Part shown: piece by piece, positions 53 to 58,140 of the stretch
Numbering within the stretch: position 1 is the first letter of the stretch
How the letters are laid out: the number at the start of each line of letters is the position of its first letter
Origin: a virus
Taxonomy: Duplodnaviria; Caudoviricetes
Reading direction: 5' to 3' (one strand)
IMG/VR virus record: IMGVR_UViG_3300036820_000022
Location: 1-58,220 of that record
DNA: 58,220 nt
Program-made: the position numbers and the translations under genes
The notes under the pieces: model-generated
What the model saw: only the letters and a program-made list of their open reading frames with translations
Told to the model about the DNA's origin: nothing
Databases searched by the model: none

Positions 53-126
53 GCGGGCGTTGCATAGTGGTAATGCCCTTGCCTTCCAAGCAAGAGTCGC
101 GGGTTCGATTCCCGCCGCCCGCTCCA
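53..126 (+). tRNA. tRNA-Gly (anticodon TCC), prophage integration target
   Basis: Full cloverleaf: acceptor GCGGGCG/CGCCCGC, D-arm GCAT..ATGC, anticodon arm CTTGC-CTTCCAA-GCAAG, T-arm GCGGG-TTCGATT-CCCGC, CCA end. Confidence 0.97.
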
Positions 127-127
127 G
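81..127 (+). repeat. attL core (47 bp, 3' half of tRNA-Gly)
   Basis: GCCTTCCAAGCAAGAGTCGCGGGTTCGATTCCCGCCGCCCGCTCCAG, identical to 58094..58140. Confidence 0.97.
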
Positions 128-160
128 AAAAAACGCCTTATTTTGTAAGGCTTTTTTCTT
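127..160. terminator. Probable bidirectional intrinsic terminator between tRNA and integrase 3' end
   Basis: A-tract, GCCTTA/TAAGGC stem, T-tract. Confidence 0.6.
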
Positions 161-1385
161 TCTTGGTCCGCTTGGCGGAAAGTGGCCGTGGGGCAACGTG
201 TGGGGCAGTAGCTGATTTTTGCTCACTCCCGATCTTCGCGAAGAGGTCGTCGAGTCGCTCGACCGCGTCGCCCACGCGCGAGCTGTACACGTGGCCGTAA
301 ACATCGAAGGTCGTCTTGATGGAGCTGTGCCCCATCCGGTCCCTCGCGATTTCCATCGGGACGCCGGCGAGCCCCATGAGCGCGTTCGCGGTGTGGCGCA
401 GCTCGTAGATCCGTAACTCGCGCGGGAACCGGTACTGCGTGTCGCCGGCCTCCCGCACGGCCTTCTCAGCCTCCTCGGCGGCGCGCACGAGCAACGGGCG
501 CCACCAATACGATCGAAGGCTCGTGAGGCGAATGAGGGCCCCCTGGCGGGTCGTAAAGACGGCGTCGCCGCTGCCTTCATCGAGGCATAGCTTTAGCCGC
601 CTGCGCAGCGCGTCGACGGCGATCGCCGGCAGATCAATCCGGCGCCGGCGCCGCTTCGTCTTGGTGGGCTCGAGGGTCGGGCGATAGCCGGTCGCTGCGG
701 TCGATACGAGGTCGGCCGTAACGAGCAGGTAGCCTTCGTCCAAGTGGACGTCGCGACGCCGAAGCGCGAGCAGTTCCGCCGGCCCCATCGTCGAGGTAAG
801 CGCCAAGATGACAAACGCCTCGAGGCGGTCGCCGCGCGCCGCCGCCAGTAGGAACCCGACTTCGGCCGGCGATAACGCGCGCATCTCTCGCCGCGGCATC
901 TTCGGAGGAGTAACGAGGGCGGCCGGATTGCGGGTAATAAGCTCGAGCTGCGTCGCCTCTCCGAGCACGCGTCGAAGCAGCGAATAGACCGCGCGCCGCA
1001 TCCGCGGGCCAACGTCGAGCTCGTCGATGTGCCGGCGCACGTCAACCGGCGTTATCTCGATGAGGCTCTTGGTCCCGAGCGATCCGAGGTGTTTGGACGT
1101 CCAACGGTAGTATTCGCGCGTGTTCGAACGCACGGGCGCCGTCTGAATCCATCGCTCCACGTATCGGGCAAGCGGCTCGAGGCTGCGTTCGTCGGTGCGC
1201 CGCTCGACGTAGGGTCGCATTTGCTCCTCGACTGCAACTCGGGCGCTGCGCGATCGGTCCGCGCGCCGGCCGAAAAACTTCTTGCGACTGCCGCGCGCAA
1301 TCGTAACCTGGGCGACATACCGGCCGTAGCTGTCGCTCCAATATACGGATCCCTCGCCGTTAGCGCGCTTTCGCTTCGCCGGCAA
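138..1385 (-). CDS. int: Tyrosine recombinase / phage integrase
   Basis: N-terminal KRANGEGSVY, YELRHT, RMGHSSIKTTFDVYGH with catalytic Tyr; adjacent to attL. Box I reads STMGPAEL instead of TGMRxxEL. Confidence 0.95.
   Translation of the reverse strand: MPAKRKRANGEGSVYWSDSYGRYVAQVTIARGSRKKFFGRRADRSRSARVAVEEQMRPYVERRTDERSLEPLARYVERWIQTAPVRSNTREYYRWTSKHLGSLGTKSLIEITPVDVRRHIDELDVGPRMRRAVYSLLRRVLGEATQLELITRNPAALVTPPKMPRREMRALSPAEVGFLLAAARGDRLEAFVILALTSTMGPAELLALRRRDVHLDEGYLLVTADLVSTAATGYRPTLEPTKTKRRRRRIDLPAIAVDALRRRLKLCLDEGSGDAVFTTRQGALIRLTSLRSYWWRPLLVRAAEEAEKAVREAGDTQYRFPRELRIYELRHTANALMGLAGVPMEIARDRMGHSSIKTTFDVYGHVYSSRVGDAVERLDDLFAKIGSEQKSATAPHVAPRPLSAKRTKKEKSLTK
186..212 (+). repeat. Putative integrase arm-type sites (GTGGGGCA x2)
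   Basis: CCGTGGGGCA (186) and GTGGGGCAGTAGC (200) match CCGTGGGGCAGTAGC at 58001, i.e. both sides of the reconstituted attP core. Confidence 0.65.
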
Positions 1386-16914: not shown

Positions 16915-17342
16915 TGCAATCGCCACTAGGTGCTCGGGAACTCCAGGAGATTGAGGAACGCGCTTCAAGGGCGACGGTAGGACCGTGGGTTGCCGAGATT
17001 TCGCCGGATGGAACCGTAGCGATGGTGGACCACGCCACGTTGCGCTCAGACGAGGCCGATGAGCCTCTAATTATTGCCTCGTGTGACGTTGCCGGAAACC
17101 TCGACAACGATGCAGTTTTCATTGCGGCGGCGCGAACCGACGTACCGCGATTGCTGGCTACGATCCGCTCCCTCCAGCAGCCGGTAACCGATGAAGCGTT
17201 GAACGACGCGGTGCGCGCCTTCGTTAACTACGGCAGAGTACACGCCGACGAGCGCGACGTTATGCTTAACGCGATGCGCGCGGCCCTCGAAGCAGCCTTC
17301 ACCCTAAGCCAGCGCAACGCGCAAGGAGAGAAACTACAGTGA
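16914..17342 (+). CDS. Ead/Ea22-like protein
   Basis: LQEIEERASRATVGPW...DAVFIAAARTDVPRLLATIR. Confidence 0.7.
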   Translation: MQSPLGARELQEIEERASRATVGPWVAEISPDGTVAMVDHATLRSDEADEPLIIASCDVAGNLDNDAVFIAAARTDVPRLLATIRSLQQPVTDEALNDAVRAFVNYGRVHADERDVMLNAMRAALEAAFTLSQRNAQGEKLQ

Positions 17343-17454
17343 ACGATTACCGCCAGCCGTTGTTTACCATTCGCGGCTGGAACACGCTATTCGGGCAACC
17401 GCCGCCACTGTGGACGCGGGCCGCGGCGTACAACGCAACAGGAGGCTACGAAGG

Positions 17455-18189
17455 ATGAGTGACCCCAAGCCGGAGGCCCTAACGGATGCGGAGTACGCGC
17501 GGTTCGTTGCGACGATGTGGGCTGCACCCGCCGACGCGAACTGGGACCGGGGCTCACTCCTCGTTCTCTGCGATACTATCGACGCCGACCGTCAGCGCAT
17601 TGCAGCGTTGGAGTCCAGTATCGCAGCGGGATTGGCGCTCTGCGAAGAATGGATAGACGGCAACGATAACGCATGTTCGGCAACTACTGTCGTCGCCATT
17701 CACGCAGCCCTTCTCTGCGAGGGCGATGGAGCCTCCCCAAAGTCCCTGCTCGCTGAACCTTATAAGGCTCCCGCAGATTTAGACTTAACGAAGCCCATTG
17801 TTCCAAGAAAGCCGCCGGTGGGACGCAGAGGCACGGAGTTTTGCCAAACGTGTCATGGACGCATCCAGGTGCGGTGCGCTAAAGGCTGCACGCAGTACAA
17901 TGAGCCGTCTTTTCCCATGAGCGGCGGTAACGCTATCGACCACACGGCGCTGATTGCGCGGTTGAGAGACGACGCGTTCGCAACGCCCGTACGATTCCCG
18001 ATAAAACGTAGCGCCGTTCTCGCAGCCCACGCCATCGAGGAATGCGACTCCATGCGGAAGGCGCTGATAGCGCTGTGTGACGGAGGCCCGAACGGCGCGT
18101 ATCACGGGCGCTACAGTTACGACATGGATGCCTTCATCGAAAAGGTTCGCGCCATCATCGAGGGTGGCGGAAAGGTTCACGATGAGTAA
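17455..18189 (+). CDS. Mosaic hypothetical protein
   Basis: RBS GGAGG upstream; composite segments including a CxxC pair. Confidence 0.5.
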   Translation: MSDPKPEALTDAEYARFVATMWAAPADANWDRGSLLVLCDTIDADRQRIAALESSIAAGLALCEEWIDGNDNACSATTVVAIHAALLCEGDGASPKSLLAEPYKAPADLDLTKPIVPRKPPVGRRGTEFCQTCHGRIQVRCAKGCTQYNEPSFPMSGGNAIDHTALIARLRDDAFATPVRFPIKRSAVLAAHAIEECDSMRKALIALCDGGPNGAYHGRYSYDMDAFIEKVRAIIEGGGKVHDE

Positions 18190-18219
18190 ACGGACGCCGA
18201 GCGGGTGCGACTGCGGGCA

Positions 18220-18354
18220 ATGCCGAGAGTTAAGCTGTGGGGCTACCGCTGCGAGCGGTGCGATCACGAATGGATTCCCCGTGACAAAGAGCAAGAGCCA
18301 AGGGTCTGCCCCAAGTGTAAGAGTCCATACTGGAATACGCCCCGACGCGCATAG
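18220..18354 (+). CDS. 44-aa zinc-ribbon protein (not in ORF track)
   Basis: MPRVKLWGYRCERCDHEWIPRDKEQEPRVCPKCKSPYWNTPRRA. Confidence 0.7.
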   Translation: MPRVKLWGYRCERCDHEWIPRDKEQEPRVCPKCKSPYWNTPRRA

Positions 18355-18397
18355 TGTACGGTGGGCCGCATGAGCGGCGGGTTCAATGCCGAGGCGT

Positions 18398-18655
18398 TTA
18401 GCCTCGACGATCTCCAGAGCGCGCTCCCTGCCGAGGCTCTACGATCTGGAGAGATGGAAGAGTTACGCCAGGTTCTACTCTTTCAAGGATGCCGCGAGCG
18501 ACTTTTAGACGCCGAGCATCTGGCAGATCAGATTTTGGAATCAGCAGACGCAGAACTTCCGAATGTCGTTGCTGCGTGGCTACAATTGCCTTCTGGACGG
18601 CGAGAATCTGGTCGAGTCGAGCCATGACGGCTTTTACGAACGATTGTTCGGGCAT
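18398..18655 (-). CDS. Reverse-oriented small hypothetical protein (moron-like)
   Basis: RBS GAGAGGGG and a TAGGTT -10-like element upstream on the minus strand; coiled-coil-like sequence. Confidence 0.55.
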   Translation of the reverse strand: MPEQSFVKAVMARLDQILAVQKAIVATQQRHSEVLRLLIPKSDLPDARRLKVARGILERVEPGVTLPSLQIVEPRQGARSGDRRG

Positions 18656-19475
18656 GTGCCCCTCTCTTAACCTAGGTGAAGCCGCGTGATCGCGCTCACC
18701 GAATTGTTGTTCGATTCTCGTCGCAGCGCCGGTGAACGCCTTGTGGCTCGCGTGTGCATAACGAAGAAATTACATACGACTGTGCCATTGGTCGTGGCAC
18801 AATGCCCGGTCAACCGAGGGCCCCTTTTTGTGCAGGACCCCGGTTTTTGTGCAAAGCCTGCTGCCGCCGACAAATACGCAGCGAAGGACACGTACCGTGG
18901 CGCGCTTTTCGATTGCGTATACAGAGGCTTCATCGCAGGCTGGGAAGCTCACGCAAGCCAAGGTTAGCCGCAGAATACGGAAGAATCGTTCGAGGGATAC
19001 CTAAAGCGGACGCTCGGGGAGAACTATTCCTCGATTGTTATTGACGCGTTGGACGCTCTAGGTCAGCCGTGGGAGTTGCAGAGGCTCCGAGAGATGGAGG
19101 CGCGGGCGAAAGATGAGCTTGAGGTCCCCCACTCCGCGCCCGTGAAGCGTATGTTGCAGCGCATCCTCAACGGCCCCGCTTCCGAGCCGTGAAGTACTAC
19201 CGCTTCATGTGCCGCGTCGGCGACGTATTACGATGGGTGGCTCTCGCATACTGCTACGCCTTCCTGGTCGTAACCGTACCGATCGCGTGGATCTGGCAGT
19301 TGATCTATTTGCCGGCGGCGGGATCCAATATAGACGACTTCGATCATCGGCTAGCGCTCATCCCAAAGCGGACGAGTTGATGAGAATTAGGCCGTTCGGC
19401 CCAATGTTCAACTCAAGCGGGCGTCAAAGGAACGTGATGCAATCACACTAACGTTCGATTCGGAGACGCCGTAAA

Positions 19476-19823
19476 ATGGATAACAAAGACATCGCCTCAG
19501 TTTTAGCCGAGTTGGGTGGCACGATCATTCGCGCGCTACTGGACCGTGGAGTCGGAACTAAACGCGCAACGGACGCTGGCGAACGCTATCTCGACCTCGT
19601 TAGCCGGATGGCGACAGAAGCGCGAAACTTTAAGACGCTGGGCGGGAGCGGAATCGTCTCTATCAGGGACCTCGAGCCAGAGACCCTCCAAACAATCGTG
19701 GTCTTACAAAAAAGCGAGTGGGGTCGCATATGGCTGGATGATAAAGACGGTCTCTGTTTCCGATACACATCCGAAAGGGGACAAGGTACTCGTTTTCAAG
19801 AGGAGAGCTCGTTTCAGGTATAA
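19476..19823 (+). CDS. Hypothetical protein
   Basis: GGAG RBS, clean ORF. Confidence 0.55.
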   Translation: MDNKDIASVLAELGGTIIRALLDRGVGTKRATDAGERYLDLVSRMATEARNFKTLGGSGIVSIRDLEPETLQTIVVLQKSEWGRIWLDDKDGLCFRYTSERGQGTRFQEESSFQV

Positions 19824-19835
19824 GAAAGTCATGCG

Positions 19836-20204
19836 CTGCGTAACATCAGCTTCGCCCTAACGACGCAGCAGATCCGCGATCGCACAAAGACGGTGACACG
19901 GCGGCTGGGCTGGCGATTTCTGAAGCCGGGCGATCTGCTTTCGGCAGTCGTGCAATCTCGCGGGCTACGCAAGGGCCAGAAAGTCGAACGGCTCGCAACA
20001 ATCCGCGTCGTCTCCGTCCGGCGCGAGCGTTTGCTGGCGATCCGGCGCGATACGGACTACGGCCTCGAAGAGTGCCGGCTCGAAGGGTTTGCCGATCACC
20101 CCGAGCTGCAATGGCCCGACCGTTTCGCGGCCTGGTTTGCCGCAGGTCACGGCTGCGAGATCGATGACGAGGTTACCCGCATCGAGTTTGAGTACGTCGG
20201 GTGA
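19836..20204 (+). CDS. ASCH/PUA-domain protein (non-canonical CTG start or damaged start)
   Basis: RNISFALTTQQIRDRTKTVTRRLGW..LKPGD...EGF...VTRIEFEY; the in-frame codon before RNISF is CTG. Confidence 0.8.
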   Translation: MRNISFALTTQQIRDRTKTVTRRLGWRFLKPGDLLSAVVQSRGLRKGQKVERLATIRVVSVRRERLLAIRRDTDYGLEECRLEGFADHPELQWPDRFAAWFAAGHGCEIDDEVTRIEFEYVG

Positions 20205-20214
20205 AACACCCGTT

Positions 20215-20232
20215 CCGTAACACATGTTACGG
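20215..20232. promoter_or_regulatory. Palindromic operator-like site CCGTAACACATGTTACGG (one of several copies)
   Basis: Copies at 20215, 21115, 21388, 32499; degenerate copies at 20232 and 20728. Confidence 0.6.
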
Positions 20233-20285
20233 TGACACTTGTTCGGCAGGGAAGGCCGGGATGTTTTTCGTACAGGCGCGGTCCT

Positions 20286-20477
20286 ATGCCATCCAGAGCT
20301 CCCAGAGGACTCTCGCGCAAGCAACTTGCGAAACGAAAACGGCAGCGTGAAGCAGCCATCTCGGCTCAGCCGCGCTTCTGCTCGCGCTGTCAAAGCCAAA
20401 TGGTGCGCCGTCGACGGGGCGACGAGCCATGGCGCTGGGTATGCTCTAACTTTTGCGGCGCGGAGATCAGCGTTTGA
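20286..20477 (+). CDS. Basic zinc-ribbon protein
   Basis: FCSRCQSQM...WVCSNFCG. Confidence 0.5.
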   Translation: MPSRAPRGLSRKQLAKRKRQREAAISAQPRFCSRCQSQMVRRRRGDEPWRWVCSNFCGAEISV

Positions 20478-20722
20478 TGCCTGGACGCGTTACTCACACT
20501 GCCGGCGGCCGCGGCGATGTGTCGATGGGTCGACAGCACGGCGGCGCCGGAATTACGGCGCGCGAATATGGCCCACCGGCTGATGCGCAACCGCCTGCAT
20601 GCTGGGATTGCAAATCCCCGATGCGCCTATGTGAAGGCAGAAAACCGCCGCACGCGCAGTTCTGGGGCTGCAGCGCTTACCCGAAGTGCAAGCGCTCTCT
20701 CTGGATTCGGAGGCCCGATTAG
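20477..20722 (+). CDS. Stand-alone topoisomerase-IA-type C4 zinc ribbon
   Basis: CWDCKSPMRL..G......FWGCSAYPKC. Confidence 0.75.
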   Translation: MPGRVTHTAGGRGDVSMGRQHGGAGITAREYGPPADAQPPACWDCKSPMRLCEGRKPPHAQFWGCSAYPKCKRSLWIRRPD

Positions 20723-20889
20723 ACGGCGGACACTTGTTACAGGGTTTGCGTCACGTAGCCAGGATTCGCGCCTGCTGGAACCCTCAGTACTGCTCGTATT
20801 TGACGAGCTGGCCGGTAGCATCTCGGCCAACGATCGAGCGGCTCGCGCCCTCGAAAACGATGCTGGACTCGCGGCGAAAGCCGCGTGGT

Positions 20890-20912
20890 TATAATATAAC
20901 CATGGCAGGAGG
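20890..20912 (+). promoter_or_regulatory. -10 box and Shine-Dalgarno for the omega-like gene
   Basis: TATAAT at 20890; AGGAGG upstream of ATG 20919; no clear -35. Confidence 0.55.
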
Positions 20913-20918
20913 GGAAAA

Positions 20919-21152
20919 ATGACCGACCTGAACCGCACCGCCGAACGCGCGCAGGCAAAAGCCGGATCGCGATTCACCCTCGTGGGCGCGATAGTGAGGC
21001 GAGCGCATCAACTGACCGAAGGTTACCCGCCGCTGGTCACCGGCGTCGAGATCGACAAGCACGCGACGACGGCCTTGAGAGAGATTGCCGCCGGCGCGGT
21101 GGAAATCGGCAAGAGCGTAACACCTGTTACGGTAAAGGAGTTGGCGGCGTGA
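20919..21152 (+). CDS. rpoZ: RNA polymerase omega subunit homologue
   Basis: SRFTLVGAIVRRAHQLTEGYPPLV...KHATTALREIAAGAV matches the omega pattern (R[YF]xLV..A.KRARQL..G..PLV...K.VTIALREIAAG). Confidence 0.85.
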   Translation: MTDLNRTAERAQAKAGSRFTLVGAIVRRAHQLTEGYPPLVTGVEIDKHATTALREIAAGAVEIGKSVTPVTVKELAA

Positions 21153-21355
21153 AGGAGATCGACGAGTTGTGCGCGTGCGGTCACCTTGCATCAGCCGACC
21201 ACAGCTATCCGCCCTACGTAGATTCAAGCCGACACCATAAACCATGCACCCCAATCCAGAGAAAGGGCGCAATCTTCGAACTCCTAGCGTGGTGCCGTAT
21301 TTGCGCGCCGAAGGAATACGAGGACGCGGTGAAAAGAGGGGCTGAACTTCTATAA
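21149..21355 (+). CDS. Small Cys/His protein
   Basis: CACGH...H...C...CRIC; RBS AAGGAG and GTGA overlap. Confidence 0.55.
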   Translation: MKEIDELCACGHLASADHSYPPYVDSSRHHKPCTPIQRKGAIFELLAWCRICAPKEYEDAVKRGAELL

Positions 21356-21387
21356 CGGCATCGAAAAGGACCGACAAAGAGCCTAAC

Positions 21388-21405
21388 GCGTAACACTTGT
21401 TACGC
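21388..21405. promoter_or_regulatory. Perfect inverted repeat GCGTAACA-CT-TGTTACGC beside an AT-rich promoter-like stretch before the packaging operon
   Basis: Intergenic; followed by AAAATAGTAATTAT. Confidence 0.65.
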
Positions 21406-21490
21406 AAACCGCACAAAATAGTAATTATCACGCCAAAGTGCTGCACGTTCGGCAGGAATCCAAGCGACGGCTAAATGAAGCCGACGCAAC

Positions 21491-22150
21491 GTGCACGCCG
21501 AGCGTACAACGCGCGCCGTCTTTTGGCAGTTAGCCTTCTGGCCACCTAACCGCGAGATCGTCGTCTCTGAGCGACGGGCGGTTTCCGGCGTCGCGGCGCG
21601 GCTGCAAATCCTCGAACTCCACGTTTTAACCCTCCAGCGCAGCACGATCGAAGGCCCGGAATCATACCCGTGCACCTATCCGGGCTGCGCGCGCGGAAAC
21701 AATCACCCGTTCGGGACGTCGGGCCACCTGGGCAATCATCGCCTCGCAGCCCACGGCATCCGCAGTACCAACGAAGAGTCGATCCGCCGCCAAGAGCGGC
21801 GCGATCGCAACCGTGCAAAAGAGCTTGGGCCGGCGCCTGAATACATCGACCGCGCGCACATCCGCGAAGTCGTCTCCCACGCGCTGCCGGCGCTCCGTGA
21901 GGCGCGCCAAGGCGAACTCGACGCTGGCGACCGAGAGCACGTGCGCCGACGTTTGTCACACTTTGTCGGCAAAGAGTTGCCTCGGGAGTTACGGCGCGCG
22001 CCGGCGGAGATTTGCCTCGCCGTCGCAGAGATCGCCGCCTCGGGGCTCACCCCGACCTATCCCAAGATCGTCGAGTCGGCGCAGACGGACTTACACATCG
22101 AGCGGATCACAACGCTGTTCACCAAGACCTCGATGCCGGTGGCGATGTGA
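21491..22150 (+). CDS. C2H2 zinc-finger protein upstream of terS (candidate late regulator)
   Basis: YPCTYPGC..F..SGHLGNHRLAAHG; last gene before the terminase. Confidence 0.65.
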   Translation: MHAERTTRAVFWQLAFWPPNREIVVSERRAVSGVAARLQILELHVLTLQRSTIEGPESYPCTYPGCARGNNHPFGTSGHLGNHRLAAHGIRSTNEESIRRQERRDRNRAKELGPAPEYIDRAHIREVVSHALPALREARQGELDAGDREHVRRRLSHFVGKELPRELRRAPAEICLAVAEIAASGLTPTYPKIVESAQTDLHIERITTLFTKTSMPVAM

Positions 22151-22689
22151 AGAAGGCATCTGCTACAGCCCCGGACGAGGCGCGGCGAAGCCCGCGCAAA
22201 AAGGCGCCGAAAGCGAGCAAAACGCCCGGCAGAATCGGCAGGCCGCCAAAGCTTACGCCTGAGCTTCAAGCCGAAATCTGCGAGGCGCTCGAAATAGCCG
22301 TGCCCGAGAAATACGCAGCCGAGGCAGTCGGCGTTTCCGAGGTGACGTTTCACGAGTGGATGCGGAAAGGCAAAGAAGGAGCCGAACCGTTTGACGAGTT
22401 TTTCGTAGCCGTGACGCGTGCGCGCGCGAAAGCCGTCACGAAGCTCACAAAGCACGCTCTGGGCGGCGAAAAAGGCAGCTCTCAGGCGGCGTGGTTTCTC
22501 GAGCGCCGCTTCCGTAAGGCGTACGGCGCGCACGTTATGGTCGGCGGGATGGAAGACGGCGAGCCGATTCGGCTTGCGGGCGACTTGAAGATTTCCGCTG
22601 ATCTGCGCGCCAGTTCCGATGCGACCAAAAAGATTCACGATGCGATCCGTTCGGCTGCCGGTACGGCGCCGGAGTTGGAGGAAAAATGA
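22147..22689 (+). CDS. terS: Terminase small subunit
   Basis: GRPPKLTPE..ICEAL...AA...GVSEVTFHEW..KG...AAWFLERRF. Confidence 0.85.
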   Translation: MKKASATAPDEARRSPRKKAPKASKTPGRIGRPPKLTPELQAEICEALEIAVPEKYAAEAVGVSEVTFHEWMRKGKEGAEPFDEFFVAVTRARAKAVTKLTKHALGGEKGSSQAAWFLERRFRKAYGAHVMVGGMEDGEPIRLAGDLKISADLRASSDATKKIHDAIRSAAGTAPELEEK

Positions 22690-22901
22690 AACGCTTCGAC
22701 CGCGTGCGCTACGTCCCGGTGGCCGACGAGGTTTGGGAAGCGTCGAAGTGCCGCATTCTTGGCGCTCAGGACCTACCGCCCGGCTCAACCGGCCGCGTCA
22801 TCTCCGTTCGGCGAAAATCGCAGCGTGCCGTCGTGCAGTTTGTCATCGGTGACAGCCGCGGCGCGCGCATCGTGCCGCTGGCGGCGTTGGAGGCGGCGTG
22901 A
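22686..22901 (+). CDS. Hypothetical SH3-like protein
   Basis: Coupled ORF; LPPGSTGRVISV...VVQF. Confidence 0.55.
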   Translation: MKRFDRVRYVPVADEVWEASKCRILGAQDLPPGSTGRVISVRRKSQRAVVQFVIGDSRGARIVPLAALEAA

Positions 22902-23206
22902 TTAGCTCCCTTCGCGCGTTCTGGAGTTCACTATGGTTGGGCGAGCGTTTTGAACCTAGTCGGCCACTAACCGAAGCGGAATGGGTTGCGAAGTACGGTG
23001 ATCGTCCGTTCCGCATCGTGCGCCATGGATTGCGATTCGCGGGCGGTGGCTATCACGCGCCTGAGATCGAGTATCGACCCGGATACGAACGCACGATACC
23101 GACGACGGAGCGCGCGATGTCAGTGTTACGAAAGCCGATTCCGAAAGGCTGTCCACCGGCGCCCACGCCTGAATCGGTGCAATACGTCGTTCACGGCTAC
23201 TGGTGA
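22898..23206 (+). CDS. Hypothetical protein
   Basis: Coupled GTGA overlaps at both ends. Confidence 0.5.
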   Translation: MISSLRAFWSSLWLGERFEPSRPLTEAEWVAKYGDRPFRIVRHGLRFAGGGYHAPEIEYRPGYERTIPTTERAMSVLRKPIPKGCPPAPTPESVQYVVHGYW

Positions 23207-23874
23207 GCAACCTTAAGCTCGTCCTTTGGTCGGGCGGCTGTGATTCGACGTTGGCGCTCTACGAAGCGCTTCTCGATCAAAAGCTCTGGGTCGTCGACGG
23301 CAAGCAGCTTTCCGAGGTTCGAGCGATCTCCGTCGTGCATCCGAGCGTTCCGTGCAACGGCCAGCAAGCGGTATCTCGCGCGAAAATTCTTGCCGAGTTC
23401 CAAAAGCGCGGCCTCGTCACGCGGCACAGCACGGTTACGGTTTCTAACGATGCCGACACTCCGCGCCGTGGCAAGGATGGCGGTTCAATCCAGACGCAAA
23501 TCTGGCTCGGGGCCGTCGCTCCGTATCTCGACGACACCGAGAGCCTGAACCTCGGCTGGATCGAAGGTGAGTTCGACAACGCCGACCATGCGATCGCAGC
23601 GTTCGACGCGCTCCAGAAGGTCAACGGCAAGACCGGGAAGCTTGCGTTTCCACTTCAGAGGCGCACCAAGCCTGAGATCATCGAGCGGCTGCGGAAAGCC
23701 GAACTGCTCGACCTGTGCTGGTATTGTGAAGGCGTTGGCGATGATCGTAGCGCGGATACGATTGAAGCGTCCTGCGGCAGCTGCTTGAAGTGCATTAAGC
23801 ACGCAACGGCGCTTTGGCAGCTCGAACACTGGCCACACGAAGCACTTGTCGCCGCGACGATTCTGGACAAATGA
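23203..23874 (+). CDS. QueC-like PP-loop ATPase
   Basis: LVLWSGGCDST PP-loop; PL...TK.EI; CWYC...CGSCLKC zinc site. Confidence 0.8.
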   Translation: MSNLKLVLWSGGCDSTLALYEALLDQKLWVVDGKQLSEVRAISVVHPSVPCNGQQAVSRAKILAEFQKRGLVTRHSTVTVSNDADTPRRGKDGGSIQTQIWLGAVAPYLDDTESLNLGWIEGEFDNADHAIAAFDALQKVNGKTGKLAFPLQRRTKPEIIERLRKAELLDLCWYCEGVGDDRSADTIEASCGSCLKCIKHATALWQLEHWPHEALVAATILDK

Positions 23875-23887
23875 GCGATGCGACGAT

Positions 23888-25408
23888 ATGGGCGATAAGT
23901 TGACCCCCAAAGCCGCGCAGATCGACGAAGACACCGTACTTGCGGGGACGTCGCCGGCGGGATTAGCGTTCGTCGCAACCAAAAGCGACCCGCGCCCGTA
24001 CGTTCCCGCGGAGTTCCATCTCATCATGGCCCAAGCGATGGTGGACCTCGAACAGCATCGGCTTGACGCGTTGTTTATGAGCGTGCCGGTGCGTCATGGC
24101 AAAACGAGGCTCGGCTCCAACATCATGCCTGCGTGGTTTCTTGGGCTTCATCCCGATCGCGAGATTCTGGCCGCGTCGCACGCCGCTGAGTTCGCAGCGG
24201 ATAAGGTCGGCGGACCGGCGCGTGACTTCTTCGTTCGGACTTCAAAGCGTTACTTCGGCGTCACGATCGACCCGTTAGCCAACGCGCGCGGTCGCTGGAA
24301 AACCTCTGGCGGCGGCGGAATGCGCGCGGTCGGCGTACAGCAAGGCATCGCGGGCCAAGGCGCGGACCTCGCGATCGTCGACGACCCGTACGCCAACGTC
24401 GAGGACGCGATGAATCGGCGGCAGCGCGATAAGGCGTGGGAATGGTATCAAGCCGAGTTCGTCACCCGCTGCTCACCCGGCGCGCCGCACATTCACATTA
24501 TGAGCCGGTGGAACGTCGATGACCACATGGCCCGCGCGCTCGAACAGGCCAAAGAGGCAAAGCTGCGCTACCGCGTTCTTGACTTCCCAGCGTTGGCAAT
24601 CTGCCCGAAGTGCGACGATTACGGCGTCGACGCCGTCAATCAATGCGGTCACGGCATCCGCGATTCGTTGGGCCGGCTACCCGGTGAAGCGTTGTGGCCC
24701 CAGGAGCGACCGCGAGACTTCTTGCTTCAGCAGCGCATTCGCACGACGCCGCGGTTCTTTGACGCGCTCTACCAAGGACGGCCGCGCCCCGATGCCGGCG
24801 CGATCTTCCGGCGCGAATGGTTCCGTCGCTATCACATAATCGGACCGCGCATCTTCCTGCACGACGAGTTCGGCAGAGTTAGCGGCGGCTACGATTTGCA
24901 CCAGTGCCGCATCTTTATGACCGTCGATCTCGCCGCCGGAACGTCATCGACCGACGGAGACTTCACCGTCTTTGGCGTCTTTGCGCTGGGCCCAAAGCAC
25001 GAGCTCATCGTCCTGGATTGGTTTCGCGATCGTATCGATGGCACGCGGCAGATTCCGATGCTGCGGGCCTATTGGAACAAACATCGTGCCGTGCGCATCG
25101 GCGTCGAGGCTGTTGCCTATCAGTGGGTCTTTATCCAAAACGCGCTCGCCGAAGGTTTGCCGATCGTCGCGATCAAGCGCGGGCGCGAAGGCAAAGAGAC
25201 ACGTTCGCTACTCGTCGCCAGCCGCTACGAAATGGGCCAGGTCTTTCATCCGCTGCCGGCAGATGCGCCCTGGGTCGTCGGAATGGAGAATGAACTGATC
25301 GACTTTCCGGTAGGCGCACACGACGATCAGGTGGACGTGATGAGTGACGCGGGCGCCGTGGTAGCCGAAGCCGAGACGCGACCGATGGCGATAGGAGTGC
25401 AGGTGTGA
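23888..25408 (+). CDS. terL: Terminase large subunit
   Basis: PVRHGKT Walker A, GQGADLAIVDDP, IMSRW..DD, ALYQGRP, VDLA..DFT, FP.GAHDDQVD nuclease motif. Confidence 0.95.
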   Translation: MGDKLTPKAAQIDEDTVLAGTSPAGLAFVATKSDPRPYVPAEFHLIMAQAMVDLEQHRLDALFMSVPVRHGKTRLGSNIMPAWFLGLHPDREILAASHAAEFAADKVGGPARDFFVRTSKRYFGVTIDPLANARGRWKTSGGGGMRAVGVQQGIAGQGADLAIVDDPYANVEDAMNRRQRDKAWEWYQAEFVTRCSPGAPHIHIMSRWNVDDHMARALEQAKEAKLRYRVLDFPALAICPKCDDYGVDAVNQCGHGIRDSLGRLPGEALWPQERPRDFLLQQRIRTTPRFFDALYQGRPRPDAGAIFRREWFRRYHIIGPRIFLHDEFGRVSGGYDLHQCRIFMTVDLAAGTSSTDGDFTVFGVFALGPKHELIVLDWFRDRIDGTRQIPMLRAYWNKHRAVRIGVEAVAYQWVFIQNALAEGLPIVAIKRGREGKETRSLLVASRYEMGQVFHPLPADAPWVVGMENELIDFPVGAHDDQVDVMSDAGAVVAEAETRPMAIGVQV

Positions 25409-32198: not shown

Positions 32199-32504
32199 AT
32201 GAGCGTCTCGACTTCGCAAGTCAATCCGTTGACGACCGGCGACACCCAAGAGGCGATGCCGGCGGTCCATTCAACTTTTCGCAAGAAGTTCGGCATCCCG
32301 CCCAAGGGAACGCCGCCGCCGGGCGGTTGGGCTGACTCCGACTACGGCTTCCCGCTGCCGCCGTCCGATCACCCGCTGGCCTACAAGTTCGCGCGCGCCG
32401 TACTGAACCGCGCTCATCAGGCCACGAACTTCGACCCAGCCGACGTCGCCAAGCAGGTTCGTAAAGCCAAAACCATCGTCGCCAAGCACGATAAGGGCGC
32501 GTAA
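32199..32504 (+). CDS. Hypothetical head-module protein
   Basis: DSDYGFPLP...ARAVLNRAHQ; precedes the protease. Confidence 0.65.
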   Translation: MSVSTSQVNPLTTGDTQEAMPAVHSTFRKKFGIPPKGTPPPGGWADSDYGFPLPPSDHPLAYKFARAVLNRAHQATNFDPADVAKQVRKAKTIVAKHDKGA

Positions 32505-32507
32505 CAC

Positions 32508-33824
32508 TTGTCACGCAGCCTGCTTTCGTACCCTGACAAGTTCGGTGGCGTCACCTCTAACTACGCCTTCCGTGAATCCGTCGTCATCGGCAACTTCGAC
32601 GCTGTCGAAAACGTCGTGCTGCTGCGCGCCGGCCACGGCAATCTCGGTCAGCGCCACTGGTACTCGGCTGCCGCGCTGCAGGATGCCGTCGCACGCGACA
32701 TCTTTGAGGCCGCGCAAGCCTATTTGGATCACCCCTCGACGATCGAAGAGCAAACGCGGCCCGAGCGCTCCGTGCGCGATTTGGCTGGCTGGTACTCCGA
32801 CGTCGAGGTCCGCCCGTACACCGATCCCGAGGTCGGAAAGACGGTCGCGCTGTTCGGTACGTTCCACCCAGCGGTCGGCAAAGACGAGGTCGTCACGATC
32901 GTTCGGACATGCATTGAATACGCAAAAAGGTACCCGAGAATGGCGTGGGCGGGCCTGAGCATCAATGCTTACGGTGACAGCGTCCCTCAGACAATCGACG
33001 GTGAGCAATGGAATGTCGTCGATCGTATAGAGGGAGTCGACTCGGTCGATATCGTCACCAAAGCCGGCGCAGGCGGAACACTTGTTGCGTCTCTCAAGGA
33101 GAGCTATCGAATGAAAACCGGTTCCAAAAGAAAGCCGACCCGCGAAGCCGACGTCAAGTTGACGCTCGACGCCGACGCGATTCGCGATGGCATCAAGAAG
33201 CTGTCCGAGAGCGGCAAAGCCGAACGCAAAGCCGCGATCGTCAAGGTCGTTGAGTCCGCGCAGGGCGGCGTTAAGGTAACGCCCGAGCAAGACGCCGAGA
33301 TCGATCGCCAGTTAGGCGTTGTCGATGGCGGCGCGCTCGATAAAGTGCTCGACGACGCGACCGGCGTCTCGGACGAACCCGACGACGAAGAAGGCGCGAT
33401 CGATCCGCTGAACCCGGCGGCCGCGACCGAAGGCGATGCGGAAGTCGAGGCGATGCCCGACGATCCCAAGTTCCTCAAGGCGCAGCTCAAGAAAGAGCGC
33501 GGCGCGCGCAAGACCGCCGAGAGCAAGGTCGAGACCGCCGAAGAGCGCGCGACCGAAGCCGAGCGCAAAGCCGGGCTGCAAACTCGCGAACGCATGGCCG
33601 AAAACGTGCTCAGTCAACTCGAAATCCCCGACGACTACCGCCCGCGACTTCGCTGGGAGTTAGTCAAGGAAGGCTTTACGCACGAGAAATCGATGCGTGA
33701 GCACGTTAAAGCGTTCGACATGGCTCACATTCGTCGCAACGACGGTGCCGGAGTTGTTTCCGGCTCGCCGACAGGCGGCGGCAGCAAAGTTTCCGCCGAC
33801 AGCTTCACCTTCGAGGAGGCGTAA
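32508..33824 (+). CDS. Prohead protease / scaffold fusion
   Basis: YLDHP...ERSVRDLAG, GLSINA.G, VDSVDIVTKAGAGG, then an acidic/coiled-coil scaffold region. Confidence 0.85.
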   Translation: MSRSLLSYPDKFGGVTSNYAFRESVVIGNFDAVENVVLLRAGHGNLGQRHWYSAAALQDAVARDIFEAAQAYLDHPSTIEEQTRPERSVRDLAGWYSDVEVRPYTDPEVGKTVALFGTFHPAVGKDEVVTIVRTCIEYAKRYPRMAWAGLSINAYGDSVPQTIDGEQWNVVDRIEGVDSVDIVTKAGAGGTLVASLKESYRMKTGSKRKPTREADVKLTLDADAIRDGIKKLSESGKAERKAAIVKVVESAQGGVKVTPEQDAEIDRQLGVVDGGALDKVLDDATGVSDEPDDEEGAIDPLNPAAATEGDAEVEAMPDDPKFLKAQLKKERGARKTAESKVETAEERATEAERKAGLQTRERMAENVLSQLEIPDDYRPRLRWELVKEGFTHEKSMREHVKAFDMAHIRRNDGAGVVSGSPTGGGSKVSADSFTFEEA

Positions 33825-49535: not shown

Positions 49536-52500
49536 GTGGCCGTCCACATCGTCGAAAGTACGACGGGGAGCGCTGCCTCCGCTGAAGCCGTAACCGTTAG
49601 CTTTCCCAGCGCCGAAACGGGCGATCTGCTGGTTTTCACCTATTCGGCGTACTTCAAAGAATTTGGGGAGAGCGCGTGGCTCCCGAACAGCGGATGGCAA
49701 GCAGTTCCTCCGACCACGAATGCCGTCGACGGCGTCACCGGAATGCTCTTTCACATAGTCGCCGAGGGCGAAACGTCGTGGACTCCCTGCAACGATGACA
49801 GCAACAGCGTCGCTGGCCTCTGGCAATGTTATCGCGTTCAGGGCCACAGCATTGCAAACCCGATCCTCAATTTCTATCAGGCCGCGGGAACCTCGATCTA
49901 TGACTTGACCTGTCCTGGCGCAGCGGCTGTAGCGGTGCTGGGCATGGCGTTTGCCGTCGCGCTATTCAACGACACGACGGTCGGAATGTCGGGTGGCGTC
50001 TCAGGCGGAGAATCTTGGACCGTCGACAGTCTTGCCGGAAGCGGAAGCACCTTTCACGCCGTTGCGCACGTGCAGTTCATCGACAATGTGACCCCCGCAA
50101 CGGGCGTCTGGGCGAGCAATCCAAACAACTCCGTGGAGTTCGTCATCCAGTGCGAGCCCGGCGGCTCCGACGACGGGTACGTCGTTATGCAGGAAATCTC
50201 GCCGTCATTCTTTTACGGCGGCTCGGGGCTCGGTTTCGGCCTATCGTGGACGCCGACGGTCGGGAATCGCCTCGTTGCGGTGTTCTTGGGCTCAAGCCTT
50301 CTTGGCGGCGAAACGCTGACGCCGAATACCGGCTGGAATATCCATATCAATCAAGCCGGGATCATCGTCGCGGTCAAAACTATTTCCAGCGGCGACGGCG
50401 AAAACTACACGGTTTCAGCCGATTCCCCTGGCATTTCTGGAGCCAACTGGGCGGCCTTCGTTTACGAAATCGGTTCGGATAACGATTGGGTCGGCGGCGC
50501 GTACGCCGACATTAGCGGTGGCGCCTACCAAACCCCAAGCTTTACGCCGCCGACGTCGCCGGCGTTCATTATTTACGCGGTCACGTCGTACACCGACGAA
50601 ACCCCGACGTGGCCGGATTACACCTGCGATTCGGGTCAAGTCCCCGATGGCGGCTACGCCGAATCGATCAACGGCGGCGGCATCGATAATAAGTTTTGCT
50701 GCGCTGCGGGTCACATGCTCGTCGGCGGCGGCGGGACCGATGCGACCTTTGGTCTGCCTGGTGGCCTCACGACCGCTTACGGTGCCACGCTTGCGTTTAG
50801 CGGAGCCGTCCCATGCCCGTCCGATCCGCCCGCGACGACGATCGGCTCGCTCTTTCCCGTAGGCATCCCTCAGGCGCGCGTCACGGTCTACCAAGCGCTG
50901 ACCGACGACGAAGGCGCGCTGCAAGTCGTAACGTGGGACGGCGGCAACTCGCTCGAAGTCCGCGACGACTTTATCGGCGGCTCGATTCAGTACGAAGATA
51001 CGCCATCGGGATGCGGCGCGGCGACGCTCTCGCTCGGCATTCCGTGGGAAGCCATGGAACAAGGGCCAGCGGGAACGCCGTACTGGCTCGCCCGTAACAT
51101 CGTGGAAATCTCAGCCTGGGACGACGTTGTTCAATCCGACTACACCCACGGCGACGCGAAGATTTACGTCGGCTCGCGCTACGGCTACGACGCCGCGCTT
51201 GGCCAAGACAAGCCGCAACTGATTCTCGACGACGGCACCAACGTCACCTATCGAATCAAGGTAACAGGCGTCGGCACGGACGGCGGCGGCGATTACGTCA
51301 CGGTGATGACGACTCCCGGAACCTACCCCGATTCGCCCTCGGAGATCCCCGATTACGCCGCCGGGACAGCGATCTACCGGCGCCGCTATACCGGCATCAT
51401 TATGAAGCGCGGCCTCTACAACAGCCGCCAGCCGCAGGGCCAAGTCACCTGCACCGGCCTCGCGCAGTACCTTAATGAAGCCGTCGGGACGTTCACGATC
51501 AACCTCGACGAGGTCGGCGACGCGCTCTATAACTGCCTCGCGCAGTTCGCTTCGCGCTGGCCGCAGCTCACGATCGACGTTTCCAACTTCCCCTATACCG
51601 GCAACAGCTACAGTGGCAGCAACCAGCAGTACACACTCGCCGACGAGATCACGCAGATTCTCTCCTGCGGCATCACTAACGGCGACACGTGGGTCGTGCG
51701 TGTCGGGCACGATCGTGTCGTTCGGCTATTGCAGCTTTACTCGCAAGCCTGCACAGCCTACAACTACAATGTCACGCTGCGCCAGGGAACGGGCACGGGC
51801 GATAACTCGGCGTTCGAAGCGCTCTCCGTCACCGGCCAAGACGAGGACGTTTCCAACTTCTACAACTCAGTCGAAGTCACGGGCGACACCAACCCGACGA
51901 CAAAGCAAGCCTACGGCGCGATCGTGCAGGATGACGAGTCGATCGAGATATTCCGTCAGGTCGATGGCGTTCCGATCTCCAACACGAGCTGCAAGAGCGA
52001 CGATGCCTGCGCCGCGTATGCCCAAGCGCTCCTCAACGATAACGCGATTCCGCGCAACAACTATCAAGTCAACGTCTACACATACAACAACGTCCTACCG
52101 ACCTACGCGCCGATGGGACTCGCGCGCGGCGACGTGATCTTGGGCGTCCATAACATCATCATTAAAGACTTCCTTGGCGGAGCGGACGATATCGACGGCC
52201 TCGTGCAGTCGGTCGTAACGACGATGGACGGTAAGACCGGCGACACGTCGCAGGTCGCGCAGTTCGCGCAGATCGAGCCGAACTGGAATCTCGCCGTCAA
52301 AGAGCGTGCGAACCGCTTTGCGATCACACTGCGGCGCAACGTAGTGCCGCCGGTGTCGGTCGATTCGTACATGGTCGGCGCGTTTGCCGATCAGATTCAT
52401 TACGCGAGCACGAGCCTCGACGTCACCGTGGGAGGAACGGACGGATTCCAGGTCGCGTTTGCGTACGGCGGCGGCATTCGCACGATAGCGCAGACCGTGC

Positions 52501-54014
52501 TGACGATGAATCCCAGCACGACGAACTACGTCTTTTTGGATTCGGGCGGCACGTTTCACATTCAGGGAGCCAACTCGATTCCAGCCGACGATACCTGGAT
52601 GCTGCACTCGATCTATCAGACGAGCAGCGGCGGCGTCATCGGGCATATATTCAAAGCGCCCCAAGGCGTGCTCGGCAACAACGGCAGCGGCGGCCCGGGC
52701 AGCGGCTCGGTCACCGAAGTCGATACGGGAACGGGGCTAACCGGCGGACCGATTACGAGCAGCGGCGAGATTTCGTTTGCGGACGTTGACGATCAGCGCA
52801 TCCTTGCGAATATCTCCGGCGGTTCTGCGGCACCGGTCCCCAAGTCGCTGTCGGATATTCTCGACGACGTTATCGCATCGGCGCGGGGCAGCATCATCAC
52901 GCGCGGCGCAAGCGGCTGGACGAACCTCGCGCCGGGAACGCTCGATGACGTTCTAACGAGCGGCGGCTCGGGGGCTGACCTATCATGGGCTCCCGCAGGC
53001 GGAAGCTCGACGCCCATCGTTCCTTCGGGCACATCGTTCCCCGGCTCGCCGACGAGCGGGCAGCTTTTCTTCCGCACCGACCTGCTCGCGCTCTTTTGGT
53101 ACAGCGGCTCGGCCTGGAAGAACGCCGACTCCATTGCGTCTCTCAACGACGTCGCGCTGACCTCGCCGGCAAACGGCGATGTCCTTACCTACGATTCGGG
53201 AAGCTCTACCTGGAAGAATGCGGCTCCGTCCGGTGGGGGAGTCTCATCGCTGCAATCTCTCACGGGTTCGCTGACCCTAGAATCGTCGGACAGTTCGGTC
53301 ATCTTTACAACTCCCGACTCGACGCATATCAACCTGAAAGCAGTCGGGAGCGGCGGCGCAAGCGTTGCTCCGTGGTATCCATTCCCGATTATTCAAGAAG
53401 CTCTCGGTACGACTGAATCGGGCGCCTCGACCTCGGTGGCCGCCAACCTGCCGGTAACGGCGACTGCCGGAAATACGCTGATTGCGATTCTCGCAACGTA
53501 CGACGATATGACGATTACGGCTCCGACGGGATGGACAATCATTCTTGCAGTCCCCGGTTTGAGCGGCGACAGCACCGGCCAGGTTGCCATTATGCTTAAG
53601 GTATCGGCGGGAACAGAAACGGGGATCGCGGTTACCCTTCCACTGTCAACGACGTTCGCGATACGGCTGCTTGAAATCTCCGGTTCGCGCTCTCTAGACG
53701 CGTCGGCGACGGCTCACCAGGCTAGCGCAAATAGCAACGGCGCAATCACCTTCCCTGCGATAACGCCGAGCGCGGGGGCGATGATCTTCGGCGTGGCCTC
53801 TGGCTACGCACAGAATGGATCGACGGCCAACTTGTCAACAGGAAACTATCTAAACGCAAGCATCGTTGTCGCCACGCAGAGTTCCGGCGGGTACTCGTTA
53901 TTTGCCGGAATTTATCTCGGCAAAGGGACCGGCTCGGCCGTTATCCCTATGCAGCTCCTTCCCTCTGGCCCACTGTATGGCGGATTCGCGTCGGCGATGT
54001 TCTCGCTACTCTGA
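49536..54014 (+). CDS. Large tail tip / fibre protein
   Basis: About 1490 aa after TMP; hub-like centre (YNSVEVTG..D.ESI..F); fibre motifs GSVTEVDTGTGLTGGPIT and LNDVALTSPANGDVLTYD. GTG start inferred. Confidence 0.8.
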   Translation: MAVHIVESTTGSAASAEAVTVSFPSAETGDLLVFTYSAYFKEFGESAWLPNSGWQAVPPTTNAVDGVTGMLFHIVAEGETSWTPCNDDSNSVAGLWQCYRVQGHSIANPILNFYQAAGTSIYDLTCPGAAAVAVLGMAFAVALFNDTTVGMSGGVSGGESWTVDSLAGSGSTFHAVAHVQFIDNVTPATGVWASNPNNSVEFVIQCEPGGSDDGYVVMQEISPSFFYGGSGLGFGLSWTPTVGNRLVAVFLGSSLLGGETLTPNTGWNIHINQAGIIVAVKTISSGDGENYTVSADSPGISGANWAAFVYEIGSDNDWVGGAYADISGGAYQTPSFTPPTSPAFIIYAVTSYTDETPTWPDYTCDSGQVPDGGYAESINGGGIDNKFCCAAGHMLVGGGGTDATFGLPGGLTTAYGATLAFSGAVPCPSDPPATTIGSLFPVGIPQARVTVYQALTDDEGALQVVTWDGGNSLEVRDDFIGGSIQYEDTPSGCGAATLSLGIPWEAMEQGPAGTPYWLARNIVEISAWDDVVQSDYTHGDAKIYVGSRYGYDAALGQDKPQLILDDGTNVTYRIKVTGVGTDGGGDYVTVMTTPGTYPDSPSEIPDYAAGTAIYRRRYTGIIMKRGLYNSRQPQGQVTCTGLAQYLNEAVGTFTINLDEVGDALYNCLAQFASRWPQLTIDVSNFPYTGNSYSGSNQQYTLADEITQILSCGITNGDTWVVRVGHDRVVRLLQLYSQACTAYNYNVTLRQGTGTGDNSAFEALSVTGQDEDVSNFYNSVEVTGDTNPTTKQAYGAIVQDDESIEIFRQVDGVPISNTSCKSDDACAAYAQALLNDNAIPRNNYQVNVYTYNNVLPTYAPMGLARGDVILGVHNIIIKDFLGGADDIDGLVQSVVTTMDGKTGDTSQVAQFAQIEPNWNLAVKERANRFAITLRRNVVPPVSVDSYMVGAFADQIHYASTSLDVTVGGTDGFQVAFAYGGGIRTIAQTVLTMNPSTTNYVFLDSGGTFHIQGANSIPADDTWMLHSIYQTSSGGVIGHIFKAPQGVLGNNGSGGPGSGSVTEVDTGTGLTGGPITSSGEISFADVDDQRILANISGGSAAPVPKSLSDILDDVIASARGSIITRGASGWTNLAPGTLDDVLTSGGSGADLSWAPAGGSSTPIVPSGTSFPGSPTSGQLFFRTDLLALFWYSGSAWKNADSIASLNDVALTSPANGDVLTYDSGSSTWKNAAPSGGGVSSLQSLTGSLTLESSDSSVIFTTPDSTHINLKAVGSGGASVAPWYPFPIIQEALGTTESGASTSVAANLPVTATAGNTLIAILATYDDMTITAPTGWTIILAVPGLSGDSTGQVAIMLKVSAGTETGIAVTLPLSTTFAIRLLEISGSRSLDASATAHQASANSNGAITFPAITPSAGAMIFGVASGYAQNGSTANLSTGNYLNASIVVATQSSGGYSLFAGIYLGKGTGSAVIPMQLLPSGPLYGGFASAMFSLL

Positions 54015-58093: not shown

Positions 58094-58140
58094 GCCTTCC
58101 AAGCAAGAGTCGCGGGTTCGATTCCCGCCGCCCGCTCCAG
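58094..58140 (+). repeat. attR core (47 bp)
   Basis: Identical to 81..127. Confidence 0.97.

Follow-up and report, generated by a model that had tools for sequence, protein, structure and literature searches.

An RNA polymerase omega-subunit (RpoZ) homologue at the early/late junction of a tailed-phage prophage from soil

The stretch of DNA analysed here (the window) is a whole IMG/VR record of about 58 kb (58,220 nucleotides). A tRNA-Gly(TCC) gene, a tyrosine-type integrase and a 47-bp direct repeat were identified (Table 1), and the record is therefore a complete prophage of ~58 kb integrated at the tRNA-Gly gene with both att repeats present, as the preliminary description of the sequence had supposed. 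It may be noted that positions 1-52, left of the tRNA-Gly gene, hold the 3′ end of a second tRNA-like sequence (GGTTCGAATCC), so that the prophage is seated in a tRNA cluster; an Rfam search returned tRNA only. From ~3.1 to 49.5 kb nearly all genes are on one strand. The left part of the prophage carries HTH_3 and HTH_17 proteins, a RecE-like exonuclease, a DnaC-like loader, a Dam methylase, DUF5131, RusA and a C5 methylase, after which come several small zinc-ribbon proteins and then omega, orf68 and p219, and the right part carries terS, a QueC-like gene, terL, portal, protease, capsid, tail genes and endolysin. Placed between the replication/recombination genes and terS/terL, the omega gene thus lies at the early/late junction, presumably the place where lambdoid phages keep their late regulator. 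Two statements made earlier on the surroundings of the gene also stand, namely that terS is found ~1 kb downstream, where the ORF matches phrog_4102, and that the gene is outside the gmk/spoT/coaBC context, none of these families being found among the omega neighbours tested, which are phage genes. The true start of terS is probably downstream of 22150. Neither orf68 nor p219 gave a match in Pfam or PHROG. The largest ORF of the window (1304 aa) is a tape measure match, and no window ORF is big enough for a beta or beta′ subunit. The QueC-like gene is a hint of 7-deazaguanine DNA modification, with no further pathway gene noted. Four ORFs on the complementary strand at 50415-52664 have GC values of 0.72-0.83 at the first and 0.57-0.61 at the third codon position, unlike the rest of the prophage, and may be a moron or foreign cassette.

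Table 1. Positions of the features discussed, in nucleotides of the window
Feature	Position	Strand	Remarks
tRNA-Gly(TCC)	53-126
attL	81..127	+	3′ part of tRNA-Gly(TCC); 47-bp repeat
Tyrosine-type integrase	138..1385	-	phrog_1, E 5.8e-59
CI-like HTH_3 protein	2100-2822	-
CGTAACA-NN-TGTTACG, perfect	20216..20231		just before the Zn-ribbon-like ORF
Zn-ribbon-like ORF	20232-20477
GGACAC leader element	20728..20733	+	same layout as seven late-region leaders
Small frame, about 39 aa	20775..20894	+	no canonical start; in frame with omega, ends 24 nt before its ATG
15-bp palindrome GGTTATAATATAACC	20887..20901		TATAAT at 20890-20895; also includes the stop codon of the frame upstream
Shine-Dalgarno AGGAGG	20907..20912	+	6 nt before the omega ATG
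Omega (RpoZ-family) gene, 77 aa	20919..21152	+	ATG to TGA as read from the sequence; PF01192, TIGR00690, AlphaFold2, Foldseek
CGTAACA-NN-TGTTACG, perfect	21116..21131		inside the omega 3′ end
orf68, Cys/His-rich small protein	21149..21355	+	GTG start overlaps the omega stop (GTGA)
CGTAACA-NN-TGTTACG, perfect	21389..21404		in the 135-bp gap before p219
p219	21491..22150	+	directly before terS
terS	22012..22689	+	phrog_4102, E 1e-20 on residues 74-189
QueC-like PP-loop protein	23203-23874		phrog_1550, E 2.3e-19; between terS and terL; conserved in L002 (50%)
terL	23846..25408	+	phrog_38, E 1.6e-80
GGACAC sites ahead of late-region starts	28174, 30471, 32151, 36193, 42817, 55024, 56079	+	consensus GCGGACACG
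CGTAACA-NN-TGTTACG, 1 mismatch	32500-32515		start of the protease gene
CGTAACA-NN-TGTTACG, 2 mismatches	33074
attR	58094..58140	+	direct repeat of attL, 47 bp

The translated omega ORF contains GSRFTLVGAIVRRAHQL..GYPPLV and DKHATTALREIAAG, motifs from which its identity had been claimed. Profile comparison gave 47.5 bits (E 1.8e-12) with Pfam PF01192 (RNA_pol_Rpb6), for which the curated cut-off is 26 bits, and 39.7 bits with the NCBIfam equivalog TIGR00690 (rpoZ), for which it is 23.6 bits. With two lineage-specific NCBIfam models the ORF fell under the cut-off (30 vs 58 and 12.6 vs 76), and no family was matched in the PHROG search. The window protein keeps every residue at which 26 diverse aligned omegas are invariant or conserved to at least 90% (R28, Q31, G35, P38, K47, A52, E55, I56 and G59). 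Its AlphaFold2 model, obtained with 26 input sequences, has a pLDDT of 83.8 and shows helices at residues 4-15, 18-33 and 48-57, with a loose tail after the last of them. On searching this model with Foldseek, all 50 of the 50 targets listed were omega-sized chains of bacterial RNAP entries (TM 0.56-0.71), none of them at E<=0.001, which is expected because the query chain is short; a PDB profile search with the omega clade described below found 21 distinct sequences, every one of them named omega (best E 5.7e-8). With both profiles above their cut-offs, the core residues in place and the fold model in agreement, the ORF is an RpoZ/omega homologue. The GC content at its three codon positions (0.64/0.51/0.74) is the same as that of other genes of the element.

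Among 5.8 billion proteins, a word-indexed search found 9 omega relatives besides the window's own, all metagenomic and with 66-73% identity, and an exhaustive HMMER search of 1.84 billion representatives gave 23 matches at E<=1e-3, 5 of which were at E<=1e-10. The IMG/VR contig L002 (14.5 kb) shares the order of genes (ASCH-like ORF, omega, p219, terS, QueC-like gene, terL), its omega being 71% identical. On comparing the window with L002 protein by protein, identity was 71% for omega, 61% for p219, 50% for the QueC-like protein, 47% for terL and 33% for terS, which makes omega the best-conserved protein of the block and p219 the second. For omega the same comparison gave dN 0.29, dS 1.30 and a dN/dS of 0.22, a rough value as dS is near saturation, and it shows, as far as codon substitutions tell, purifying selection on the gene. 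Among other IMG/VR records with a p219 homologue, 2 of 3 carry a PF01192 match over the cut-off, omega being adjacent to p219 in one and 12 kb away in the other. The latter is the more distant provirus G402, in which the p219 homologue is downstream of an omega identical to P0016 and with 47% (HMMER) or 45% (BLASTP) identity to that of the window; next to this omega are a RuvC-like resolvase and a gene of a PHROG family. No PF01192 match was found in the third record, G403, which is 82% complete, and a terL-based survey found omega in 0 of 19 viral loci with distant terL (24-32% identity). The survey of related phages thus agrees with conservation of the gene, syntenic in L002 and present in G402, and because it is missing in G403 and in the 19 distant terL relatives, omega recurs in this phage group as an accessory gene and not as a core one.

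Such patchy occurrence would also suit a captured host gene riding along with no role in the phage. The comparisons tell otherwise, since omega keeps the 71% identity and the low dN/dS given above while terL goes down to 47%, since it holds the same position in L002 and since it belongs to a supported clade of its own, made up of metagenomic sequences (see below), outside which no sequence among the listings has more than 53% identity to it. The highest identity to a named cellular omega was 50% among the sequences listed (Candidatus Tumulicola sp.). Near-identity to a host gene, which the preliminary description had named as the mark of a recent passive capture, was not found in the protein listings, a comparison that rests on named MAG omegas. 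With low cellular identity, an own clade and the shared position in L002, the gene is therefore, judged on these alignments, not a recent capture, and the reading as cargo without function is already disfavoured and in our estimate highly improbable.

Two omega trees were built on 73-78 columns, and as the columns are few many forks are unresolved. The first tree leaves out P0006, P0012, the cluster members P0033-P0037 and duplicate loci, and the second leaves out 13 loci of the G001 phylum. The window omega falls in a clade of 11 (support 97/80 and 97/83), which together with P0013 and P0014 makes a group of 13 (98/82; 99/94), itself nested in a clade of 20 or 24 (98/96; 95/95). This larger clade includes omegas of 96-162 aa, one of which is named by NCBI as Candidatus Tumulicola sp. 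(Vulcanimicrobiaceae). The common 72-aa omega of Eremiobacteraeota, Baltobacteraceae and Vulcanimicrobiaceae MAGs makes a separate clade (97/98), whose position as sister is weakly supported (89/78). Identity to the window omega is 45-53% for the 96-162-aa type and 38-44% for the 72-aa type. It may be noted that Vulcanimicrobiota MAG omegas are of both types, the 72-aa one and the 96-162-aa one with N- and C-terminal extensions (P0061-P0064 vs P0066-P0108). For one p219 homologue the annotation gives a Candidatus Baltobacteraceae MAG (Vulcanimicrobiaceae) as its source. The sequencing runs holding the stretch are four soil-metagenome DNA runs, with no RNA run among those listed. Protein-atlas leads on the host are mixed, pointing to Verrucomicrobiota by features and to Vulcanimicrobiota by structure. 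Taken together we consider it fairly likely that the host is a member of the Vulcanimicrobiota (Eremiobacterota). Separately, 401 genomes of the G001 phylum gave 94 omega matches with a best identity of 49%; these were set aside as a host clue, being small genomes of another phylum.

Some traits are particular to the phage omega clade, namely LVGAIV in helix 2 and VTGVE.DKHATT in the loop. The window protein starts with MTDLNRTAERA and is without the N-terminal MAR(V/I)T; relatives of the MAR type (P0023, P0026, P0027, P0029 and P0031) belong to another clade. A C-terminal -AA is found in 13 of 15 phage-clade omegas vs 0 of 18 among P0015-P0032. The last omega codons (21138-21152 in the window, 6970-6988 in L002) hold a Shine-Dalgarno sequence and the GTGA overlap with the next ORF, and this next ORF differs between the two despite the same overlap: orf68 is not conserved in L002, the ORF that overlaps omega there being another one, of 118 aa. 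Because these codons spell the ribosome-binding signal and the overlap, the -AA end may be a trace of translational coupling and not a property of the protein; alternatively it may be a ClpXP-type degron.

Omegas of other types were found elsewhere in viral DNA. When a degenerate DNA pattern for ALREIAAG was run over IMG/VR contigs, 61 stretches matched and 13 of these hold an omega-like ORF (12 of 60 on leaving out the contig of L002 itself). The viral omegas of other types grouped with MAR-type omegas (99/95 with 14 rows, 87/84 with 17 rows), and those of L080 and L046 adjoin a PHROG-family GTP cyclohydrolase, thymidylate synthase and ribonucleotide reductase. We also observed that the viral contigs bearing the omegas of L080/L090/L099, L046/L094, L047 and L057 are AT-rich and up to 259 kb long, and that some omegas of AT-rich contigs carry a C-terminal extension of 40-70 aa. 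As the types are unrelated, omega genes seem to have entered phages more than once. The nearest protein-atlas cluster (ESM Atlas) has 195 members, 68% of which are labelled Viruses. When 50,697 phage records were searched by tblastn with the window omega, no match came up. With the L099 omega 9 phage records were matched, all below 60% identity and 6 of the 9 rows at 47.0%: two are 240-kb 'Acinetobacter phage' contigs with the annotation rpoZ, two are Salmonella genome contigs, and the five without annotation under the match comprise two Campylobacter phages, a faecal record of 4.4 kb and two records of less than 2 kb. We do not count these nine as cases of omega in cultured phages, as they probably are cellular DNA in the collection. 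Scans with the omega alignment found only distant cellular omegas, at 53% and 36% in genome contigs and at 41% and 36% in metagenome contigs. No description of a phage-encoded omega was found in the full-text literature searched, the coverage of which leaves subscription journals largely outside.

Directly upstream of omega, the TATAAT and AGGAGG reported earlier are both there (Table 1). The reading of TATAAT as part of a private omega promoter found no support, as it has no matching -35, lies within a palindrome over the stop codon of the upstream frame and is missing in L002, where nothing like this palindrome is found upstream and omega is packed against its neighbours. The palindrome GGTTATAATATAACC occurs once in the window. 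A sigma-70 promoter scan of 17000-24000 returned 0 sites vs 1.8 expected from shuffles. These results bear on the proposal that omega is expressed from the prophage, by means of the TATAAT and the strong ribosome-binding site, and alters the expression or stress tolerance of the lysogenic host. The presence of the two signals would agree with it, as would the stress phenotypes of omega mutants in other bacteria, but besides the defects of the TATAAT just given, the gene is co-oriented within the lytic gene array and far from the integrase/repressor end, and we regard the proposal as improbable.

A better candidate for an expression signal is the GGACAC element. There are 16 GGACAC sites on the + strand of the window, all at or right of 18886, and in 7 of the 16 cases the site is 46-48 nt ahead of a predicted + strand start (28221 for portal, then 30519, 32199, 36240, 42864, 55070 and 56125). 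Random placement gave on average 0.12 and at the maximum 3 such fits in 2000 trials vs the 7 observed. The late-region leaders have CCAAG(A)G just before the ATG, and one such GGACAC site in L002, at 14279, is followed after 47 nt by an ATG. The site at 20728 lies 47 nt before codon 20775 (CTG), the first of a small frame, the product of which matches the N-terminal extension of the omega homologue P0006 with 68% identity over 28 aa, the Met of P0006 being aligned with codon 20775. The leader layout at 20728 and the match to P0006 therefore suggest a unit made up of GGACAC, the small ORF, omega and orf68, which the GGACAC at 20728 probably starts; no terminator-like site was found on the + strand from 20728 to 21355. 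As to their nature, the GGACAC leaders may be a phage-specific late promoter, an RNA leader or a processing site. A link between omega and the GGACAC promoters had been suggested before, and the part of it that stands is this leader at the head of the omega unit; action of omega on GGACAC units stays conjectural.

Another repeated element in this region is the 16-bp palindrome CGTAACA-NN-TGTTACG, for which we found 5 matches in the window vs 0.10 expected. The three perfect copies fall within 1.2 kb around omega and p219. None is present in L002 or in the repressor region; hence they look like the operators of another phage protein, and the palindrome is probably the putative operator of a phage regulator. 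A candidate for a regulator is p219, which has the motifs C-x4-C...H-x4-H, AHGIRSTNEESI and PEYID, the latter two blocks being invariant. Its family has loci in the window, in L002 (7923-8591), in L101 and in L102, those of the window and L002 directly before terS, and 18 homologues are known to us besides the window's own. The structure model of p219 is poor (pLDDT 60) with a best structural Z of 4.5; four proteins with ANTAR antiterminator domains are in the top 13 of the structure search, at a weak Z of 3.4-3.8 over residues ~135-187. A complex prediction for omega with p219 scored 0.00 vs a mark of 0.32, a result that counts neither way on binding. The two genes would share a contig in 9 cases, which are the window, L002 and 7 pairs matched by equal contig size (78852, 1794, 62787, 35050, 34233, 41062 and 116521), of which 1 of 7 was confirmed by sequence as the provirus G402.

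From this arises the possibility that the phage omega serves as a docking handle, offering a surface to a phage regulator (p219 or a small zinc protein) so that a private polymerase prefers the GGACAC late units. Artificial contacts to omega reportedly activate transcription (Dove and Hochschild 1998). In favour of this role, no other genes of the block are as well conserved as omega and p219, their co-occurrence is as described (with the G402 pair confirmed by sequence), three operator-like palindromes bracket them, and there is a precedent in GafA, which activates RcGTA through omega (PMC9638019). Yet p219 is present without omega in G403, the two are 12 kb apart in G402, no DNA-binding or omega-binding domain was recognised in p219 by Pfam, PHROG or structure search, and GGACAC is only a putative promoter, so that we hold this role to be rather unlikely. 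We hold it quite unlikely that the phage omega marks a private pool of RNAP which p219 or a palindrome-binding zinc protein, recognising the phage-specific surface or tail of this omega, then steers to the GGACAC units; if true, this would be promoter selectivity by subunit swap, without a phage sigma factor.

On balance we find it probable, though by no means strongly so, that the gene encodes a functional RNAP omega of temperate tailed phages of soil Vulcanimicrobiota, which is made lytically, joins the host beta′ and aids late transcription. Known functions of omega include help in the folding of beta′ and in assembling the core enzyme. Temperate tailed phages of one lineage would have kept the gene for a long time and would make the protein during the lytic cycle, from a unit headed by the GGACAC leader that the late genes also have. 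The phage omega would take the place of omega on the host beta′, entering newly assembled or omega-free polymerase or getting in by exchange, and might bind in a different mode since helix 2 and the loop of the clade are unlike those of cellular omegas. Its effect there would be that the host enzyme stays assembled and processive and can be used for long one-strand late transcription, and such a stabilising or processivity role fits because nearly all of ~3.1 to 49.5 kb is on one strand. In E. coli without omega, RNAP processivity is lower and termination higher (PMC13192885). Host omega is described as dispensable for growth, yet essential for expression of the phage-like RcGTA (PMC9638019).

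The same changes in helix 2 and the loop could be taken as signs of a decoy or competitor that titrates a host omega-binding factor or blocks beta′ and thereby shuts off host transcription, and many phage takeover proteins indeed act by mimicry. Such a role has little probability in our judgement, for none of the universal omega positions has been lost and the model shows the usual fold, and a poison subunit would harm the transcription of the phage too as the window encodes no polymerase of its own. A change in the sensitivity of the host RNAP to the stringent response had also been proposed. The N-terminal MAR(V/I)T motif of proteobacterial-type omegas takes part in ppGpp site 1. This site lies between beta′ and omega (PMC10994330), and as the motif is missing from the window protein and the probable host belongs to the Vulcanimicrobiota and not to the Proteobacteria, the ppGpp role finds no backing here.

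Compared with cellular RpoZ (PF01192, TIGR00690), the phage omega is alike in profile scores, universal residues, three-helix fold and size. It differs in that cellular RpoZ lies beside gmk/coaBC (gmk-rpoZ-coaBC in L003) whereas the phage gene lies between recombination and packaging genes, and in having at most 50% identity to named cellular omegas, no MAR(V/I)T and the -AA end in 13 of 15 clade members. Phages redirect RNAP by sigma and anti-sigma factors, by covalent modification or by small binding proteins, or they bring a whole polymerase. P23-45 gp39 (PMC3950348) is said to be an example of such takeover of host RNAP, and T4 gives further ones. With phage sigma/anti-sigma factors and RNAP-binding proteins the omega described here would share the presumed aim of securing the host polymerase for phage genes, but those are phage inventions or sigma homologues, whereas this is the homologue of a core subunit and hence a different tactic, which suggests that the phage adjusts the host transcription machine by supplying one core part. 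Omega-family ORFs are likewise present in the viral records L039, L044, L046, L047, L057, L059, L080, L093 and L094. These nine IMG/VR omegas are of a different clade, have a MAR N-terminus and are in AT-rich contigs of up to 259 kb, and because of the clade and the contigs we take them for separate acquisitions; unrelated viral omegas suggest that the tactic arose more than once. As omega is the least understood RNAP subunit, a copy kept by a phage is a natural experiment on assembly, processivity and factor docking, and one that sits in a poorly known soil phylum. A close analogy is the GafA-omega/RcGTA system (Sherlock and Fogg 2022, PMC9638019), where a phage-derived structural cluster hinges on a contact with omega. 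RcGTA depends on the omega of its host and on GafA as the regulator, whereas here the omega is supplied by the phage and p219 is only a candidate regulator.
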